Part shown: positions 413 to 22,700 of the stretch, in pieces
Layout of the letters: each line of letters opens with the position of its first letter
How positions within the stretch are numbered: the stretch's first letter is position 1
NCBI GenBank assembly: GCA_963666305.1
Contig: OY762722.1
Span: forward strand, 4,707,073-4,771,072
DNA from: Candidatus Poribacteria bacterium
GTDB taxonomy: Bacteria > Poribacteria > WGA-4E > WGA-3G
Length of the DNA: 64,000 nt
Reading direction: 5' to 3'
Position numbers and translations under genes: made by a program
The notes under the pieces: model-generated
Seen by the model: only the letters and a program-made list of their open reading frames with translations
The model's database searches: none
What the model was told of the DNA's origin: nothing

Positions 413-805
413 TTAATCTCCTTTATCCGCAACCGTATAGAATTGAACCTTTTCAATGCGACCGGCTCCAGTCATTGCGTGTTTTATAATTTTGACAGCA
501 TTAGTCCTGGCGATAAGCGGAATTTCATAGGGGAACTGAATTCCGCCCGGTACTTTCTTAGCGGGTGCCCATCGATTTCTCTTATCACGCACGTGAATTT
601 CGATGTTCCGGATTTTGCCAGAGCCAAGAAGCACAATTTTCCGAATGTTTGCTCTTTCTGGAAGCGAATAAATTTCTCCGTGGAAAGTTGCCTTTTCTTT
701 TACATCGCGATCGATGAGAACATACGTCTGCTCCGTTAGCAGTGCCGCACAGCCAATTTGTGACAAACAAGCAAGTATAAAGAGTAAGTATTTCCATCTG
801 TTCAT
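413..805 (-). CDS. Small secreted/lipoprotein-like hypothetical protein (MNRWKYLLFILACLSQIGCAALL...)
   Basis: ORF 413..955 trimmed to the internal ATG at 805, which has an AAGGAG RBS 7 nt upstream; the upstream part of the called ORF is translation of a repeated leader element. Confidence 0.5.
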   Translation of the reverse strand: MNRWKYLLFILACLSQIGCAALLTEQTYVLIDRDVKEKATFHGEIYSLPERANIRKIVLLGSGKIRNIEIHVRDKRNRWAPAKKVPGGIQFPYEIPLIARTNAVKIIKHAMTGAGRIEKVQFYTVADKGD

Positions 806-1075
806 GATTGTTCTCCTTACACACGGTTTTCGGATTGATAGGTGGAGCGATGCAGCAATTGAGATATGGGAAAACCTATTGCATCGCTCCGTATTTTCCA
901 AGGAGGAAGGCTCTCCCGATTGGTTCACAGTATTAAAAGCATGAGCAATTTTCATGCCAAAGGCAATTCAGGTGAGAAATCGGTTTAAAGGCAGTTTTCT
1001 CGCCACGCTACCAGAAAGAATATATTTAAGTGTTCAATTTATGGACAGTTTTGTTCAAAACTGAGGAAGGTACTG
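806..1075 (-). promoter_or_regulatory. Conserved structured leader element, copy 1. Contains an 11-bp perfect stem GGAGCGATGCA/TGCATCGCTCC with a 25-nt loop, an anti-SD-like CCUUCCUCCUU on the transcript strand, and a TTGAACA-N14-TTGAACA direct repeat
   Basis: About 85% identical to 5485..5760, in the same orientation, upstream of an unrelated minus-strand gene. Confidence 0.5.
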
Positions 1076-1109
1076 CGGTGGGAAACCCAGTTAACATTCT
1101 GGGTTTTAT

Positions 1110-1195
1110 AAGGCTATTCGTAATAGGACTTACACATTTCCTCAAAGTCCCCCTGATAAGAGCGGATATAGGGGTTGAGGATTGAGAGAGAAAAA
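1110..1195. repeat. Short intergenic repeat (GGACTTACACATTTCCTC..CCCTGATAAG..) also present at 10963-11040, partly at 22394-22410
   Basis: Direct sequence similarity between the loci. Confidence 0.4.
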
Positions 1196-1283: not shown

Positions 1284-2246
1284 CTATTGCACGAAATGGG
1301 GCGTATTTCGCTTAAGCATGCCCCAGAGCACCATCTGTGTATTCTCGCTTGGTGAAACACCAAACGCAGATGGCACCCAGGCAGGAGAAAATTCCTGTCC
1401 GGGACCTTGCGTCAGTTTTCGGAGTCCACCACCCGCCGCACGAATGAGATAGATGCCTTTATTTTCCTCTTGAACGGATACGTAGGCAATCCACTGACCA
1501 TCAGATGACGCATCAGGTTCTTCGCACGCGTGTTCAACGTTCGTCAATTTTTGGGCGTTTCCTCCGTCAATATCCACCGCAAACAGTGTCGGCACCTTTA
1601 CGCCGCCGAGCTTCTCGCTGGAAAAATAAATTTGCTTTCCGTTAGAAGCCCACGTGGGACTTGTTGCTGAAACTTGTGTGAGTGCTCTTTGTTTTTCACC
1701 ATCAGCGTTCATGACATGGATACCACCAATGCCGTCCAGCGTGGAACGAAACGCGATCCACTGCCCATCTGGTGACCAGGCAGGCGTTGAATTGTGTCCA
1801 CCTTTATTTGTGAGTCTCTGAACTTTCTTACCGTTCACGTCCATTATGTAGATGTCAGTGTCCGCGGCATGGTCGCGCGCTTGGTTAGATGCGAACGCGA
1901 TCCATTTTCCATCCGGGGACCATGCGGGATTGATATCGGTAGCGCGATGGTTTGTCAGCCGCCGAGATTCCTTCGTATCCATATCCATTACATAAATCTC
2001 TGGATTCCCGTCTCTGTTTGAGACGTAGGCAAAAGCGCGACCGTCTGGGGACCACGTCGGCGAGAAGTCCTCTGACGGGTGATTGGTTAAGTTGGTGAGA
2101 ATCTCACCATTTATATCTATGGTATAGATGTCAAGATTTCCTGTCCTATCGGAGGTGAAGGAAACCCTACTGCTGCCCCAGACGTTCATTGTCAATAGGC
2201 AGCTTGTGAACAGTAACGTAAACAGAAATAATATTCGTCTCATCAA
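1284..2246 (-). CDS. TolB-like periplasmic beta-propeller protein (PD40/WD40-like repeats)
   Basis: Repeated ..SP(D/T)WSPDG(K/Q)WIAF.. motifs typical of TolB/PD40 propellers; signal peptide; TTG/ATG start at 2246/2243. Confidence 0.75.
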   Translation of the reverse strand: MMRRILFLFTLLFTSCLLTMNVWGSSRVSFTSDRTGNLDIYTIDINGEILTNLTNHPSEDFSPTWSPDGRAFAYVSNRDGNPEIYVMDMDTKESRRLTNHRATDINPAWSPDGKWIAFASNQARDHAADTDIYIMDVNGKKVQRLTNKGGHNSTPAWSPDGQWIAFRSTLDGIGGIHVMNADGEKQRALTQVSATSPTWASNGKQIYFSSEKLGGVKVPTLFAVDIDGGNAQKLTNVEHACEEPDASSDGQWIAYVSVQEENKGIYLIRAAGGGLRKLTQGPGQEFSPAWVPSAFGVSPSENTQMVLWGMLKRNTPHFVQ

Positions 2247-2268
2247 TAAGACTTCTCCTGAATCGAAT

Positions 2269-5088
2269 CTAAGATTGTGTCCCTAATTTTCGCTTGAGAA
2301 TAGTGCCGTGTGCACCGATCACAACTATCCCAAGCCCTTCAACGTAGTCAACATGGTACAAATCTTCGTCGGTGCCGGATTTTTCAATTTCCCATGTTGC
2401 ACCACGATCCTTAGTGTGTAGGATGAGTCCACCCGCTCCAACAATCCAACCTTCCATTTCGTTGATGAAAGTGACATCATAGAGATGTGTACTTACTCCG
2501 ACATCGACCGCTGACCATCTCAAGCCTCCATTTGACGTACGGAGGACGATCCCATCCCTGCCGACAGTCCATCCCTTTCGGCGATTTAAGAAAGATACAC
2601 CGTACAGATCATACCCAGTGTTGGTCGTCTGAAGGTGCCATGTGGATCCTTGGTCGTTTGTCCAGAGAACCTTTCCCCAGGACCCAACAGCCCAACCGTA
2701 ATACTCACCGACCATCTGGAGGTCGCGATAGGATGCCGAGGTTTCGTTCTCTCGATGTGTCCATATTGTGTTTCCATCCCTGTTATGGAGGATAACGCCT
2801 TGTTCACCAGCAGCCCACCCTTCACCGAAACCTTGGAAGTATGCTGTGTAAAGTTGACACGCTTCTTCTATGCGTTGACTGTTTTGGTCGTAGCCACTCA
2901 TTACTGGTTTCGTGGCTTCGTTCAAAACCTGCCATGTCCTTCCACCGTCGGTGGTAGATAGGAAACTCGCGTCTTCGGTAAGCAGCCAACCGATCTCTGA
3001 GGAGACAAAATGCACGGCAACCAGTGGGGTATCTACCGGAGATTTAACGCTCTTCCAAGTGTTGCCGCCATCTAAGGTGTGGAGCATCGTTCTGGAATTA
3101 CCGACTGCCCACCCTTCAATAGGGTTAATGAAGGAAATATCCGTTGATTTCATACCGGTATCCACACCCATTATCCGGAAGGGTCCGTCGTTGCGTAAGA
3201 TGTCCCATCCTGCATCAATTTTTGGCAGTTCGGTTTCGGTCTCATCAAAGGACCGTTTACGTGGTGTATATTTTGATATTGACGGAATCGTATAAGCGAT
3301 AGCGATGCCGTCTTCACCAACGGCAAATAATTTATCCTCCGTGACACTGATGTCCCTAAGATTTTTGTCCGTTCCACTGGTCTCCCGTGCCCACGTCTTG
3401 CCTCCGTCCTGTGTGAGTAAAAGTGTTCCTTCGTCACCAACCGCTATTCCTACCGTGGGAGAGACAAAGAAGATTTTATTGAGATTCGCCTGTGTACGCG
3501 AGTATTGCGTCTTCCATGTTTTACCTCCATCGGCGGTATGAAGGATGAGTCCATATTGTCCAGAAACCCAGCCGAGGTTAGCGTCCAGAAAGTAAACCGA
3601 GTAGAGTTCGTTAAATGTCCCGCTCTCTTGGGGTTCCCATGTTTTCCCACCGTCGATGGTATGGAGGATTTTGCCGGGCCAACCGATAGTCCATCCCTCA
3701 TTCGGGGACACAAAGCAGAGGCCTTTTAAAAGTTCAAAGATATAACCGCGTTGCTCAATCCAGTTTTCGCCCCCGTTGTTGGTATAGAAAATACCTCCCA
3801 TATCACCAACAGCCCAACCGCGATCGCGATTTAGGAATTGGACATCGTGCAAACCGATCCAGTCATATCCTTTTTGGACTTCCCACGTTTTTCCATCTTC
3901 GGTATGTAAAATATAGCCGGAATCGCCGATTGCCCATGCTTCTTCTTCGTCCACGGCGGTCACTTTATTTAAACCGACAGAGAGTCCACTTTCCTGCCGT
4001 TCCCACGAGCGTCCTTCATTTTCGGTCCGGTAGATTGCCCCACGATTCCCGACTGCCCAGCCGCGTCCACCTTCTGTCATGTCCACACCTGCTAAGGGTT
4101 CGGCACTGCTTTCCGCGTCGATTGTCCACGTTTTTCCACCATCAGTAGAGTGAAGCATCGTTCCGTAACTGCCAACCGCCCAGATATGTTTAGCATCAGG
4201 CGAATGCACAGCCAACAGATCGCTATGTGTGCCTGTCTGATGGACTGCCCATGTCTGTCCACCATCTTGCGTGTGCAGTACTTCTCCAGCTTGCGCTGCC
4301 AACCACCCTTTTTTAGCATCGGTAAAACAGAGATCGAAGATTGCGTGTGTGTCCTCAATGTCAGGTTCCCCGCGGATCCATGATTTCCCGCCGTCTGTTG
4401 TTGAGAGAACAGTCGCCCCAATTCCGACTGCCCAGCCCGTCTTTTGATTGCGATCAAAGTGTATATTGAGCAAACTATGCTCAGGTGCTACCGTCTCAAC
4501 GCCCCATGTTTTCCCGCCATCCGTCGTGTGCAATGCGGTGCCGAGTTGTGCGATCAACCAACCTTCGCTTCCATTGACGAAGTGGACACCGACGAGTGCT
4601 TCGCCGACACCACTGGGTCGGAACTTCCACGATTTTCCACCGTTTGCGGTATAATAGAGTGCCCCGCCTTCTCCGGTTATCCATCCCCGTAGGCCGTCCA
4701 AGAAGTGAAGGCTGATGAGACTTCCGTCTGTGATAACCTGTTGCCGCCAGTGTTCGCCCCCGTCTTCTGTTTTTAAAAAGATTCCCTCGTCTCCGACAAT
4801 CCATCCACGTTTTTTATCTATGAACTGCATCTTATTTAGGCGTGCTTCAGTGCCACTATTCTGTGTTTCCCAATTTTTTCCGCCATCCGCCGTATAGAGG
4901 ATTGTCCCTTTCTCCCCGATGACCCAACCGTGCTTTGCATCGAGAAAGAAAACGTCCCTAAATTCTACTTCCCAATCGGCGCGCCTAACAATTTCCGCCT
5001 TGACAGGCGCGCGCTGTTGTAAGAGTGATTTCACGCCGCACCCACTAAGCAGCACGAGCAACGAGATAATTATTGTAGTGATGCGCAT
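2269..5088 (-). CDS. Large lipoprotein with about 20 BNR/Asp-box (Ycf48/sortilin-like) repeats (TxDGGKTW)
   Basis: Lipobox LLSGC at the N-terminus; many ..T(T/A)DGG(K/R)(T/S)W.. repeats at regular spacing. Confidence 0.75.
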   Translation of the reverse strand: MRITTIIISLLVLLSGCGVKSLLQQRAPVKAEIVRRADWEVEFRDVFFLDAKHGWVIGEKGTILYTADGGKNWETQNSGTEARLNKMQFIDKKRGWIVGDEGIFLKTEDGGEHWRQQVITDGSLISLHFLDGLRGWITGEGGALYYTANGGKSWKFRPSGVGEALVGVHFVNGSEGWLIAQLGTALHTTDGGKTWGVETVAPEHSLLNIHFDRNQKTGWAVGIGATVLSTTDGGKSWIRGEPDIEDTHAIFDLCFTDAKKGWLAAQAGEVLHTQDGGQTWAVHQTGTHSDLLAVHSPDAKHIWAVGSYGTMLHSTDGGKTWTIDAESSAEPLAGVDMTEGGRGWAVGNRGAIYRTENEGRSWERQESGLSVGLNKVTAVDEEEAWAIGDSGYILHTEDGKTWEVQKGYDWIGLHDVQFLNRDRGWAVGDMGGIFYTNNGGENWIEQRGYIFELLKGLCFVSPNEGWTIGWPGKILHTIDGGKTWEPQESGTFNELYSVYFLDANLGWVSGQYGLILHTADGGKTWKTQYSRTQANLNKIFFVSPTVGIAVGDEGTLLLTQDGGKTWARETSGTDKNLRDISVTEDKLFAVGEDGIAIAYTIPSISKYTPRKRSFDETETELPKIDAGWDILRNDGPFRIMGVDTGMKSTDISFINPIEGWAVGNSRTMLHTLDGGNTWKSVKSPVDTPLVAVHFVSSEIGWLLTEDASFLSTTDGGRTWQVLNEATKPVMSGYDQNSQRIEEACQLYTAYFQGFGEGWAAGEQGVILHNRDGNTIWTHRENETSASYRDLQMVGEYYGWAVGSWGKVLWTNDQGSTWHLQTTNTGYDLYGVSFLNRRKGWTVGRDGIVLRTSNGGLRWSAVDVGVSTHLYDVTFINEMEGWIVGAGGLILHTKDRGATWEIEKSGTDEDLYHVDYVEGLGIVVIGAHGTILKRKLGTQS

Positions 5089-5139
5089 GTGTCCTCCTTG
5101 CTTTTACAGTTTAATTTTTGATGAAGTAAGACTGATTTG

Positions 5140-5484
5140 TTAATGGTTTAACAATTCACTAACACCAAGTCCTTCAAATACTCGCTTGACGACAGGACTC
5201 GCGCCACGGACTTCAATGCGCATGTTAGACCGCTTGGCATCTTTCAAAAAGGCTACCAATCCGACGGCTGTAGAAGGATCCAGTAAAAAGACGTCCACCA
5301 TCTGAAAACAAATCGTCTGCTCAGCCCTATACTTCAATAAGGATTGTAACGTTCCGCAGATCGTGTTTCTGAGTGTCCGGTCGAGTCTACCGAAGAGTCG
5401 AACAGAAATATCTGTATCTTGATAACCAACTTTGAGCCATCCTTCTGGACGCGTTACCGCCACTTTCTTCTTCCAAAATAACAT
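5140..5484 (-). CDS. STAS-domain protein (anti-sigma factor antagonist SpoIIAA-like)
   Basis: ..ICFQMVDVFLLDPSTAVGLVAFLKDAKRSNMRIEVRGASPVVKRVFEGLGVSELL fits a STAS fold; start set at ATG 5484 because upstream residues are translation of the repeat leader. Confidence 0.65.
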   Translation of the reverse strand: MLFWKKKVAVTRPEGWLKVGYQDTDISVRLFGRLDRTLRNTICGTLQSLLKYRAEQTICFQMVDVFLLDPSTAVGLVAFLKDAKRSNMRIEVRGASPVVKRVFEGLGVSELLNH

Positions 5485-5760
5485 TTTAGCACCTCTCAAC
5501 GATTTTACAAGATCTAAAGACGATTTTTGGATTGATAGAGGGAGCGATGCAGCAACTGAGATATAGGAAAGCCCATTGCATCGCTCCATAATTTCCAAGG
5601 AGGAAGGCTTTCCGGGTAGTTCACAGTATTAAAAATATGAGCAATTTCCATGCCAAAGGTATCGGAACGAGAAATCACGTTTGAAGGCGAATTTTACCGA
5701 TCTCCTGCGATAAAGGATTTGTTCTTTGTTCAATTTCTGGACAGTTATGTTCAAAAGTAG
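5485..5760 (-). promoter_or_regulatory. Conserved structured leader element, copy 2 (same hairpin stem, anti-SD-like tract and TTGAACA-N14-TTGAACA repeat as 806..1075)
   Basis: Stem is 11/11 identical to copy 1 while the loop differs at 4 positions; TGTTCAA at 5727-5733 and 5748-5754 on the plus strand. Confidence 0.5.
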
Positions 5761-5950
5761 TGTCTCTCTTTTCGCTATTAAGATTTGTGGACCCCAAAAG
5801 GAGTGTTCCTACCATCCATCTATATATTTTGATAATTCACCATAAATAGTCTCGCATAAACACAGGACTATTTAGTTTTCGGTTCCGATCTTGGTTTTCG
5901 TCCACAGATGTTTAGGGTTTCGCGCAATATCGCGAGCATGAAGAAATTGA

Positions 5951-5990
5951 GGAAATACCCTATCAAAAACCCCAAGCAAAAACACTCGCT
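5951..5990. repeat. Intergenic mosaic repeat, family E (..CCCTATCAAAAACCCCAAGCAAAAACAC..)
   Basis: Core CCCAAGCAAAA(A)CAC recurs at 29732-29766, 31441-31466, 48721-48770 and 63620-63657. Confidence 0.5.
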
Positions 5991-6066
5991 CCTACAGCGG
6001 AAAAATGTTCACGCACATAAAGTAAATATGTAAAACTAAATGACCTTGGCATAAACATTGAAGCTA

Positions 6067-6095
6067 TTGACATTCATCTATTTTCCAAGTATACT
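6067..6095 (+). promoter_or_regulatory. Sigma70-like promoter: TTGACA, 17 nt spacer, TATACT
   Basis: Consensus -35 at 6067-6072 and -10 at 6090-6095, about 45 nt upstream of the epimerase ATG. Confidence 0.4.
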
Positions 6096-6141
6096 AAGCA
6101 GTAGAAATAAATTTCATCATTTGAACGGATTGGAGACATCC

Positions 6142-7179
6142 ATGCGGGTTTTGATTATTGGTGGTACGGGGCTGATTAGTACGGCAATTACCCGCGCTCT
6201 GGTTGCGCGTGGGGACGATGTGACGCTCTATAACCGTGGGCAGACTGAGGCTGATATTTCAGAAGGATATGCCACCATTACTGGCAATCGGAAAGACTAC
6301 GCCGCGTTTGAAGCACAGATGACGGAAGCGGCGAATTTCGACGTTGTCATCGACATGATCGGTTTCGTTCCTGCTGAGATTGAGAGTGCCATACGCGCGT
6401 TTCGCGGCAATATCCGACAATTCATCTTCTGTAGCACGGTCGATGCCTATACGAAACCTGCCCGGCACTACCCTATTCGCGAGGATGCAGCACGGGAACC
6501 GATGCCATCTTTCCCGTATGCCTACAATAAGGCAAAGTGTGAGCGACTTTTAGAGGAAGCACACGAACGTGGCGATTTTCCAGTCACGATTATCCGTCCG
6601 GCACACACTTACGGTGAGGGACGCGGATTGATTCATTCGTTTGGACTCGGTGGTGCGTACTACTTCGACCGTATCCGTCACGGCAAACCGATTATTACAC
6701 ACGGTGATGGTTCTTCTCTCTGGGCGGCGTGTCATCGTGACGACGTAGGACAGGCGTTCGCTGAAGCGGTCGGCAACAACAAGACATTCGGCAAAGGGTA
6801 CCACACAGCGAGCGAGGAACCGATGACTTGGAATCAATACCATCAAGCAGTTGCAGAAGCCATGAAAGCACCAGAACCTGAACTAATTCACATCCCGACC
6901 GATTTTCTATTTGAGATCGCGCCTAAGGCAGCAGAATGGTGCAGAGAGAATTTCCAATACAACAATATCTTCGATAATACAGCGGCAAAAACAGACCTGA
7001 ACTTCCGCTATACCATTCCGTTCGTTGAGGGTGTGCGTCGCATTGTAGGTTGGCTTGATGCCCGTGGGCGCATTCACGATAAAGATGAACCCGAAGTCTA
7101 CAGCGAAATTATTGAGAGATGGAGAAATTTTAGTACGAAAGGGGCTTTTTTCGGAGGGTCTGATAATGCGAAGGCATAA
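6142..7179 (+). CDS. NAD-dependent epimerase/dehydratase (SDR family)
   Basis: MRVLIIGGTGLIS Rossmann motif; GGAG RBS; start trimmed from ORF 6058. Confidence 0.75.
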   Translation: MRVLIIGGTGLISTAITRALVARGDDVTLYNRGQTEADISEGYATITGNRKDYAAFEAQMTEAANFDVVIDMIGFVPAEIESAIRAFRGNIRQFIFCSTVDAYTKPARHYPIREDAAREPMPSFPYAYNKAKCERLLEEAHERGDFPVTIIRPAHTYGEGRGLIHSFGLGGAYYFDRIRHGKPIITHGDGSSLWAACHRDDVGQAFAEAVGNNKTFGKGYHTASEEPMTWNQYHQAVAEAMKAPEPELIHIPTDFLFEIAPKAAEWCRENFQYNNIFDNTAAKTDLNFRYTIPFVEGVRRIVGWLDARGRIHDKDEPEVYSEIIERWRNFSTKGAFFGGSDNAKA

Positions 7180-8167: not shown

Positions 8168-8211
8168 TACTCTCCTGTTTTTTTATCAAACTTACGTTTT
8201 CATAGATGCGC

Positions 8212-9357
8212 TTATTTTAACCCTTTCGGTGCCAATTCCCCAATGGAACTTTCCAGAATATCGGATGCTTCGGTGGGTATGTGCTTAGCCGTTGGCGGAA
8301 GCGGTGTATCAAAGAAGTAGTCAGGATCGGTTTTCTGTCGTTGCCAAGTCTCGCGCATTTCGCGCCAAGCCCCGAAAAACGTTCGCAGTTCGGGCATATC
8401 TTCGGCAATTAAGTGATGCAATTTTTTCAAATTGTAGCAAGGCACTCCTGCAAACATGTGATGCTCAATGTGCCAATTCATACGCCAATACAAAAACTCC
8501 GCCAAAGGGTTGAGTTTGATTGACCGTGTGCATTTGCGGAAGTCGGGGTCATTTTCCTTTAAACCACAATGTTGAGGCAGAGAAACGGCGTAGGATCCCC
8601 AGTTTGCAATAAATGCACTAACAGTGATAATGAGCGGGAAAACCCAATACCCCGTGGCGAGTGAAACAACAAACAAACTGCCGTGAAAAAGGAGTAGAAT
8701 CCAAGACCACCCCATCGAATTTTTATGTTCTTCGGGTTGATCAACATGTAATGATGCCAACCATTCCTGACTCGGAATTTCTGACGGTCCCTCTTTGCCA
8801 AAGGCACTACGGATGGTGCAGATAACTGCTGCAATAAGACCGCCTTTGCTAAAGGTGCGACCGGGTTGTGTGAATAAATTTACAGTAAACAGTTGAAAAA
8901 CGAATAAGGATCCGAGCTTGGGTTCAAGTGGGAGAAGGTTTTCGCGATCCCCTTCGGGGTATAAGGTGTAGCGGTGATGATAGGTATGGCTACTGGCGTA
9001 GTCAAAATGATCCCACCAACTGATGAGACTAAAGAGGTAAAGAAAAAATTTGTTCAGCCATTTGGTCCGAAACACGGTGCCGTGCCCCAGTTCGTGATTG
9101 GCTGTCCCTTTGAAAAAACTGGCGACTGTGCCATGAAAAAATAAGGCAATGCCAAAGCCGAGCCACATCGCCTGTGCCCAAAAGAGGTAGACCACACTAC
9201 CCGTCAATAGCCAGAGGGCAAGATGCCCGCCTGCCTGAAACCAGCCTTGTGCGTCGCTTCGTTTCGATAGATTTCGCAAGGTTGTGCGGTCTATTTTGCT
9301 TCGGTACCATTTTACATAGAGTGTCTTTCGTACTTCAGAAAGGGATTGATATGTCAT
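8212..9357 (-). CDS. Membrane fatty acid desaturase
   Basis: Histidine boxes HELGH, HTYHH, HIEHH and multiple TM segments. Confidence 0.8.
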   Translation of the reverse strand: MTYQSLSEVRKTLYVKWYRSKIDRTTLRNLSKRSDAQGWFQAGGHLALWLLTGSVVYLFWAQAMWLGFGIALFFHGTVASFFKGTANHELGHGTVFRTKWLNKFFLYLFSLISWWDHFDYASSHTYHHRYTLYPEGDRENLLPLEPKLGSLFVFQLFTVNLFTQPGRTFSKGGLIAAVICTIRSAFGKEGPSEIPSQEWLASLHVDQPEEHKNSMGWSWILLLFHGSLFVVSLATGYWVFPLIITVSAFIANWGSYAVSLPQHCGLKENDPDFRKCTRSIKLNPLAEFLYWRMNWHIEHHMFAGVPCYNLKKLHHLIAEDMPELRTFFGAWREMRETWQRQKTDPDYFFDTPLPPTAKHIPTEASDILESSIGELAPKGLK

Positions 9358-22387: not shown

Positions 22388-22700
22388 AAAATTAGGACTT
22401 ACACACAAAACAGATAGTGAAGGATGAAAGATTGGAACCCTCCGCTTCGCTTTGAAGCCGAAGAATCTCGCAAATAAACGAAGGCATCTTACGTAAGCGC
22501 TATATAATTTCACAGTTTTCATAGCAAACCGAGAAATCATTAGGTTTCTCGAAAGGCTATAAACCCATACCACGCTTGTATCTTGGACGGTTTTGGTCAA
22601 AATTTGCTATGAAGTTTGCTATGAAAATTTCGTGAATCAAGTTTATGAGCAAACAAATTCTGTAGAATTGGACGTATCCGATATTTCGTAGGTAAGTTTC

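Follow-up and report, generated by a model that had tools for sequence, protein, structure and literature searches.

A sigma-54-type promoter cassette with a predicted pseudoknotted leader upstream of exported-protein genes in Candidatus Poribacteria

This study examined a conserved element that occurs twice in a 64,000-nt stretch of the genome of a Candidatus Poribacteria bacterium (contig OY762722.1; the whole stretch is termed the window), where an earlier note based on the sequence had proposed a structured 5′ leader shared by two unrelated operons. The results revealed that each copy comprises three modules of defined order, spacing, and orientation, namely an enhancer-like site, a sigma-54-type promoter, and a leader with a core predicted to fold as a pseudoknot, and that their conservation and the base-pairing pattern of the leader extend to related genomes. 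We consider it probable that each copy is a cassette of these three modules serving genes of exported proteins; our best guess is that its leader gates translation. A sigma-54 RNA polymerase and an activator would use the first two modules, and the leader would act in cis after transcription. The element is a new, phylum-restricted combination of a sigma-54 promoter cassette and a cis-acting RNA motif in the 5′ untranslated region (UTR), each of a known kind. Poribacteria are uncultivated sponge symbionts, for which the cassette provides a concrete, sequence-defined regulon, marks a family of exported proteins as co-regulated, and supplies an RNA candidate of approximately 95 nt with a testable pseudoknot.

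Modular organization of the two window copies

Copy A occupies approximately positions 823-1060 and copy B approximately positions 5520-5756. Both copies lie on the minus strand and face their own genes, upstream of unrelated transcription units, in the same relative orientation that the earlier note had described. The similarity of approximately 85% over approximately 250 nt given there proved slightly lower when the copies were aligned by blastn (79.7% identity over 241 nt, A 823-1060 versus B 5520-5756, E=5e-52), and blastn detected no third copy in the window. The identity between copies A and B was 32% upstream of the enhancer site (the TTGAACA block), 93% in the enhancer site, 51% in the 72-nt spacer between the enhancer site and the promoter, 94% in the 16-nt promoter block, 81% from the promoter to S1a, the first helix strand of the leader, 88% from S1a to a conserved tail, and 57% from the tail to the start codon (ATG). 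Such sharply varying identity along the element speaks for separate functional modules rather than one continuous RNA.

The promoter module is TGGCATGAAAATTGCT in copy A (944..959, minus strand), with GG at -24 and GC at -12, and TGGCATGGAAATTGCT in copy B (5640..5655, minus strand), and both are perfect matches to the sigma-54 consensus. Perfect matches to TGGCAY-N5-TTGCW on both strands of the 64 kb numbered only two, one in each copy and both pointing at the genes; the GG and GC dinucleotides stand 10 bp apart within a gene-directed TGGCAC-N5-TTGCW. No sigma-70-like promoter was found in 780-1300 around copy A, and the sole such site of copy B is a weak 9/12 match overlapping the start codon. 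Transcription would start approximately 12 nt past the GC (-12 C at 945 and 5641), near 933 in copy A and near 5629 in copy B, and the predicted starts give leaders of approximately 128 and 145 nt, respectively, or approximately 125-150 nt overall.

The upstream module is TGAACA-N4-TGTCCA-N5-TGAACA, read at 1031..1058 in copy A and 5727..5753 in copy B (both minus strand), where the earlier note had correctly recorded the direct repeat TTGAACA-N14-TTGAACA. The three hexamers follow one another at intervals of one helical turn, the middle one in inverted orientation. Phased hexamers approximately 100 bp upstream are the usual look of a sigma-54 activator site. The position of the triple agrees with that of activator-type sites, approximately 80-150 bp upstream, and the triple, which lies approximately 85-110 bp upstream of the predicted start, is presumed to bind a sigma-54 activator, that is, a bacterial enhancer-binding protein (bEBP).

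Copies in related genomes

A genome collection containing one genome per species was scanned for the promoter followed by N25-50 and CCTCCTTGG. The scan returned 68 loci, 37 of which carried the whole element; 35 of these were titled Candidatus Poribacteria and two were titled 'uncultured bacterium'. The remaining loci were unrelated promoter-like chance matches in other phyla, together with one perfect sigma-54-like site in a Poribacteria chromosome (L049) that has no leader and no gene directly downstream and was set aside as uninformative. A metagenome scan anchored on the leader hairpin yielded only five loci, one of which (L081) was a chance match. We then used a covariance model whose sole input was the leader core. 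The model produced 52 full-length sense matches scoring 58-116 bits (100.4 bits for the pseudoknot core of copy B, 5541..5614, minus strand), all in element-carrying loci, and antisense matches of at most 27 bits; it also found one truncated remnant and one degenerate copy. Four further copies were located in two additional chromosomes. The cassette was found only in sponge-symbiont Poribacteria and is restricted to the phylum.

Among the copies, 11 were detected by the leader model alone, lay outside the promoter-containing search pattern, and provided an unbiased test of the promoter. Every full-length copy, these 11 included, had the -24/-12 element. In 10 of the 11, the distance from this element to the leader core downstream was 12-32 nt; in the remaining copy (L071), promoter and leader are split by an insertion of approximately 125 bp with inverted ends. 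The promoter assignment is based on sequence, spacing, and a conservation that does not depend on the way in which the copies were gathered. The hexamer triple, which was part of no search pattern, was kept in 36 of the 53 tabulated model matches and ended 70-73 bp upstream of the -24 element each time. Its conserved form across copies is TGAACA-N4-TGTYCA-N5-TGRACA, and the spacer between it and the promoter is poorly conserved.

In approximately 12 copies, another conserved upstream block replaces the TGAACA-type site, and the promoter and leader are unchanged. The block reads ...GCTGCACTTCTTCGGGCATTTTTT...TTTTTGTGCAATTTAACAGC...ATTATGGGCATATTT...TTGGCAT followed directly by TGGCATGAAAATTGCT, and it was delimited at L014:6400-6590, L025:7160-7350, L065:7360-7547, L067:1540-1727, L084:12390-12585, and L085:9680-9875. 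The presence of a different conserved block suggests a second activator, for which it is presumably the site.

These findings bear on the earlier proposal that a single structured RNA, a leader or riboswitch, spans the entire stretch of approximately 250 nt together with its TTGAACA repeat. The similarity between copies A and B is contiguous, as that proposal would predict. Nevertheless, conservation is modular, with a spacer only 51% identical, and the upstream half holds a perfect sigma-54 promoter together with hexamers in helical phase, the distance between the two being fixed. The promoter and the leader core are 10-32 nt apart, depending on the copy, which is what a boundary between a DNA module and an RNA module would produce, and the leader-core model works without the upstream part. 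We therefore regard a single continuous RNA as very improbable. What stands of the proposal is a conserved and structured leader shared by unrelated transcription units; approximately 935-1075, about half of the interval originally flagged, is instead assigned to control at the DNA level.

The copies also allowed us to consider whether the element is a nonfunctional dispersed repeat, or whether two promoters came to share it through a recent duplication or gene conversion. Several copies occur per genome, and truncated remnants exist (L033:6999-7056 and L001:8172-8219), both of which would suit a repeat. However, all 52 full-length copies were intergenic, on the strand of the downstream gene and just upstream of its start codon, with a distance to a start codon bearing a strong Shine-Dalgarno (SD) sequence that was always 10-100 nt. 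The element was conserved across dozens of species-level genomes of Poribacteria while the flanks diverged. It has no terminal repeats of its own and lacks the features of a miniature inverted-repeat transposable element (MITE), and the real MITE-like insertion inside one copy (L071) looks quite different. Copies in random orientations or inside genes, which the earlier note had named as signs against a regulatory leader, did not appear among the collected copies, and covariation, whose lack the note had named as a further sign, was present to a modest degree. The repeat explanation is largely refuted, and we consider it hardly credible.

Loss of the element was also observed. Twenty-two contigs, drawn from sponge metagenomes and from assemblies of Poribacteria, encode the exact 130-amino-acid protein that lies downstream of copy A; there, copy A was 98.5-100% identical, and copy B and most of its operon were deleted. 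As read at L001:8172-8564 against window 2269-5484, the deletion in these strains took copy B, the STAS gene, and most of the BNR gene; a 48-nt remnant of the leader end and the STAS start (8172-8219) and an 81-amino-acid open reading frame (ORF) corresponding to the N-terminus of the BNR lipoprotein are left. At L033:6999-7056 (minus strand), a decayed copy retains only the P2 half of the leader, without a promoter, before a STAS-like start codon.

Base pairing in the leader

The leader hairpin, P2, matches the 11-bp stem that the earlier note had called invariant: the pattern GGAGCGATGCA-N25-TGCATCGCTCC occurred exactly twice in the window (844-890 and 5541-5587), compared with zero occurrences expected from shuffled sequences, and the 25-nt loops of the two copies differ at four positions, as claimed. 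In copy A, stem pattern, folding, and conservation define the 5′ arm P2a as GGAGCGAUGCA (880..890) and the 3′ arm P2b as UGCAUCGCUCC (844..854), both on the minus strand as are all leader parts. The hairpin alone had predicted energies of -19.8 (A) and -21.9 (B) kcal/mol, with z-scores of -3.6 and -3.1. The earlier note had left the P2 loop free, which did not hold, because nine loop nucleotides pair with an upstream segment. The resulting 9-bp helix, S1, joins the upstream strand GGGAGAGCC (S1a; 909..917 in copy A), located 18 nt before the hairpin, to the complementary P2-loop strand GGCUUUCCC (S1b; GGUUUUCCC in copy A, with 909..917 pairing with 876..868). The order of the parts is S1a, linker L1 (18 nt, UNCCUCCUUGGAAAAUAY), P2a, 3 nt, S1b, L3 (13 nt), and P2b, so that the leader core of approximately 95 nt is predicted to fold as an H-type pseudoknot formed by S1 and P2.

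In copy A, L1 is UUCCUCCUUGGAAAAUAC (891..908) and contains a tract resembling the anti-SD sequence of 16S rRNA, CCUCCUUGG, at 906..898; the CCTTCCTCCTTGG tract pointed out earlier was likewise found in both copies. A conserved tail, CUAUCAAUCC, follows P2 directly at 832..841 and is present in both window copies and most homologues. The corresponding parts of copy B are S1a at 5614..5606, CCUCCUUGG at 5603..5595, P2a at 5587..5577, S1b at 5573..5565, P2b at 5551..5541, and the tail at 5529..5538. The ORF list confirmed that the gene caller had extended both downstream genes through the element (ORFs 413..955 and 5140..5598), a case that illustrates how ORF callers over-extend genes through structured leaders.

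The pairing was maintained among homologues. In 47 distinct copies, standard pairs occupied 97.9% of the cells over both helices (98.1% for S1 and 97.7% for P2), compared with 33-53% when the partners were slid by one to three columns. Cells changed on both sides numbered 14, versus 3.6 +/- 1.5 in column shuffles, and the covariation score exceeded that of all 500 shuffles. Compensatory changes clustered at the top of P2, where they replaced A-U with G-C in six copies, C-G with U-A in three copies, and G-C with A-U in one copy, and at the first pair of S1; in the middle of S1, G·U and A-U replace one another among copies. A perfect S1, GGAGAAGCC/GGCUUCUCC, is preserved through two double substitutions in L051, the most divergent copy. 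The stem persisted in 50 distinct copies, some of which show compensatory changes.

An inverted repeat of this type could instead be a DNA operator for a dimeric repressor located downstream of the promoter. The almost invariant 11-bp arms and their palindromic TGCA cores suit that idea. In contrast, G·U cells outnumbered A·C/C·A cells (77 versus 16), and pairing was possible in 967 of 997 cells on the sense strand compared with 906 of 997 on the antisense strand. The G·U excess indicates that the pairing signal belongs to the transcript in gene orientation and not to a DNA palindrome. A gap of 25 bp between half-sites is unusual for operators, and no rationale at the DNA level exists for the S1 complementarity, which persists through changes such as those in L051. 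An operator is therefore improbable.

The loops were conserved as well as the helices. The motif CUCCUUGG hardly varies, which also holds for copies collected with a pattern that did not include it, and the linker variants observed were CCGCCUUGG, UCUCCUUGG, CUCUUUGG, and CCUUCUUGG. One copy (L040:7720-7821, minus strand) contains a short duplication inside the linker, CCTTGGATTGGAAAAAA, indicating that the length of L1 tolerates an additional 6 nt.

Several other structures were considered and rejected. RNAfold and RNAalifold proposed a local hairpin, P0, pairing GGGAG with the linker CUCCU, but the variants GGGAA and CCGCC break P0 without compensation, which leaves it at most the role of an alternative state. 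An inner extension of P2 in the GCAAU/AUUGC register was contradicted by variants, for example in L012 and L026. In alignments, pairing between L3 GAUUG and the tail CAAUC and between the 5′ CUGAG and the L3 CUCAR did not hold consistently from copy to copy. A leader peptide AUG-CAA-UAG inside P2 was dismissed because the ORF is not conserved, and an opposite-strand ORF of 22 codons behind CCAAGGAGG was dismissed because it sits in the variable segment between promoter and leader.

Possible action of the leader and the genes it precedes

Given these modules, control might proceed as follows. A bEBP would bind the three-hexamer enhancer site, and sigma-54 polymerase would start transcription approximately 12 nt downstream of the GC, near 933 or 5629. 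The leader RNA (approximately 125-150 nt) would then fold into S1 and P2, with the 18-nt linker displaying CCUCCUUGG, a copy of the 16S anti-SD sequence. Our best guess for the next step is that the linker, or CUCC and GGAG segments that swap partners, would pair with the SD 60-75 nt downstream and thereby gate translation, with a trigger (a ligand, a protein, or temperature) setting the balance. The output would be a Poribacteria-specific exported set comprising small beta-sandwich lipoproteins and PD40, BNR, WD40, and LamG proteins.

The L1 tract CCUCCUU corresponds to the core of the 16S anti-SD sequence and can pair with strong SDs (AAGGAG and GGAGG) located 60-75 nt downstream; in copy A, the SD AAGGAG was read at 813..818 (minus strand), and the ATG follows at 805..803. 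The SD lies 40-55 nt downstream of P2, outside the fold. The leader contains three GGAG-type segments (S1a, P2a, and the SD) and three CUCC-type segments (L1 and S1b/P2b), so that several mutually exclusive folds are possible. Such alternatives are compatible with a switch but prove nothing. A terminator scan identified no intrinsic terminator in 780-1300 or 5460-6150, and P2 is followed by ACCUAUCAAUCC, without a U run; the lack of a terminator after P2 makes transcription attenuation unlikely.

Several results weigh against a translation-gating leader behind a sigma-54 promoter. The complementarity between linker and SD, which the earlier note had read as allowing SD sequestration, makes sequestration through CCUCCUUGG possible but is trivial, since every SD is complementary to any CCUCC tract; the predicted pairing reached p>=0.5 (RNAfold) in only 4 of 20 scorable leaders, and the complementarity in copy B is limited to approximately 4 bp. 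Double changes were observed in just 4 of the 20 base pairs, the others being invariant or changed on one side only among sequences that are close relatives. The modest covariation, with moderate statistical support, is attributable to the great similarity of the copies, the adjacent lipoprotein being at least 65% identical across its family. The stems are conserved in sequence and not in pairing alone, which makes protein recognition or a role at the DNA level conceivable. Most copies were collected with a pattern that included both CCTCCTTGG and the promoter, and the start sites at 933 and 5629 are predictions. Moreover, a motif scan and tblastn for rpoN and bEBP genes (AAA+, GAFTGA) detected none in the window or in approximately 600 kb of Poribacteria loci, and a literature search on Poribacteria with sigma-54 found nothing. 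A literature search on Poribacteria gene regulation, riboswitches, or RNA motifs likewise found nothing.

As a special case of gating in cis, the pseudoknot could be the aptamer of a new class of ligand-sensing riboswitch, in which a metabolite or ion stabilizes S1 and P2 and alters access to the SD. This reading, which we consider unlikely, draws on the compact pseudoknotted fold with its near-invariant linker and loop nucleotides, on the presence of several copies per genome in the 5′ UTRs of different genes, and on the lack of a matching RNA family. Rfam 15 gave no match at the gathering threshold in the window and 18 Poribacteria loci, and at E<=10 over 700-1300 it gave just four unrelated chance matches. 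A Poribacteria-1 RNA motif was reportedly presented by Weinberg et al. in 2017 as a candidate structured RNA from Poribacteria; Rfam returned no match by that name, even at E<=10 over 700-1300, and if the motif is among the Rfam families, the present element is distinct from it. Nevertheless, the downstream genes encode exported proteins, with no transporter or biosynthetic gene hinting at a ligand, the SD lies outside the fold, the stem sequences are stricter than those of usual riboswitch helices, and no intrinsic terminator is present.

Similar to the H-type pseudoknot riboswitches SAM-II, preQ1-II/III, guanidine-III, and fluoride, the leader is a small 5′-UTR pseudoknot in which a loop pairs with a flanking strand, its linker nucleotides are highly conserved, and a link to SD access is possible. 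It differs from them in placing the SD 40-55 nt past the fold rather than inside it, in matching no Rfam 15 family, and in preceding genes that give no metabolic clue. Its pyrimidine-rich anti-SD tract complementary to the SD of the gene resembles SD-sequestering leaders and RNA thermometers (ROSE and fourU); unlike in those, the tract lies 60-75 nt from the SD, no simple hairpin is formed, and the predicted pairing is inconsistent among homologues.

The leader could also be a platform for an RNA-binding protein that represses or activates translation of the regulon, such as a dedicated regulator or a GGA binder of the CsrA type. Conservation of the stems and loops at the sequence level, repeated GGA/GGAG motifs at UUGGAAA, ACGGAGC, and the SD, and the occurrence of one leader type before unrelated genes are consistent with this idea. 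However, no candidate protein was identified, and the GGA motifs are not in hairpin loops, unlike classical CsrA sites; we therefore regard a protein platform as doubtful. A broader proposal, which we offer only tentatively and consider unlikely, places the leader in a new class of RNA switches that respond to a ligand or a protein, occur in Poribacteria alone, and are hard-wired to sigma-54 enhancer promoters, so that two signals govern exported lectin-like and beta-propeller proteins. If it were true, expression would require both firing of the activator ATPase for transcription and opening of the leader for translation, and the targets would plausibly be used in dealing with the sponge host matrix.

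The promoter module of the cassette resembles the enhancer-dependent sigma-54 promoters glnAp2 (NtrC), nifH (NifA), and pspA (PspF) in its -24 GG, its -12 GC, and its TGGCAC-N5-TTGCW sequence. It also shares with them phased inverted hexamers approximately 100 bp upstream and targets at the cell exterior. Unlike these promoters, it is coupled to one conserved structured leader in every copy, and we know of no described sigma-54 regulon with a shared structured leader on every promoter. A sigma-54 regulon in which every promoter is fused to one structured leader would be unusual in its two-layer control. Sigma-54 regulons are reportedly tied, as a rule, to the cell exterior (Francke et al. 2011; PMC3162934), a link that a regulon of exported proteins fits.

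Copy A precedes the gene at 413..805 (minus strand), which encodes a 130-amino-acid lipoprotein of a family seen only in Poribacteria. The product has a predicted signal peptide with a lipobox-like Cys19 and no Pfam or NCBIfam match, and its AlphaFold (AF2) model (pLDDT 79.5) is a beta-sandwich weakly resembling CBM32 and F5-8C (discoidin) domains (TM ~0.5). Copy B precedes an operon at 1284..5484 (minus strand), identified through Pfam and NCBIfam matches and translations, which encodes a STAS protein as its first gene (5140-5484), a BNR/Ycf48-like lipoprotein (2269-5088), and a TolB-like PD40 propeller (1284-2246). Among the copies, the commonest target is the 129-130-amino-acid lipoprotein family, which forms two paralogous groups and approximately 200 clusters, with all given organism names being Candidatus Poribacteria. 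The other targets are the STAS-BNR-PD40 operon, stand-alone TolB-like PD40 propellers, LamG proteins, a WD40 protein with a FlgD_ig domain, and a BNR protein. Such units frequently follow one another in tandem, at least two per 8-20 kb, and each has a promoter and a leader of its own.

Several targets share a C-terminal motif, T-x-(L/T)-W-(G/A/S)-x-L-K, followed by four to eight mostly basic or polar residues. The motif was observed in the product of window 1284-2246 (...MVLWGMLKRNTPHFVQ) and in PD40, LamG, and BNR proteins in L012, L025, L027, and L066. No Pfam or NCBIfam model covers it, and it is possibly an unrecognised sorting tag.

A hairpin, AAACCCAG-N8-CTGGGTTT, lies at window 1083-1107, past the PD40 gene and before the enhancer site of copy A; it was not called by the terminator scan but may terminate the upstream operon. 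The insertion between the sigma-54 promoter and the leader in L071 (6622-6745, minus strand) has the inverted ends TAGGACTTACGCA...TGCGTAAGTCCTA and looks like a miniature transposable element. Its end-word recurs at window 1124-1136 and 22393-22405 and at approximately 7940 and 8113 in L001, beside a conserved AAGTCCCCCTGATAAG tract.

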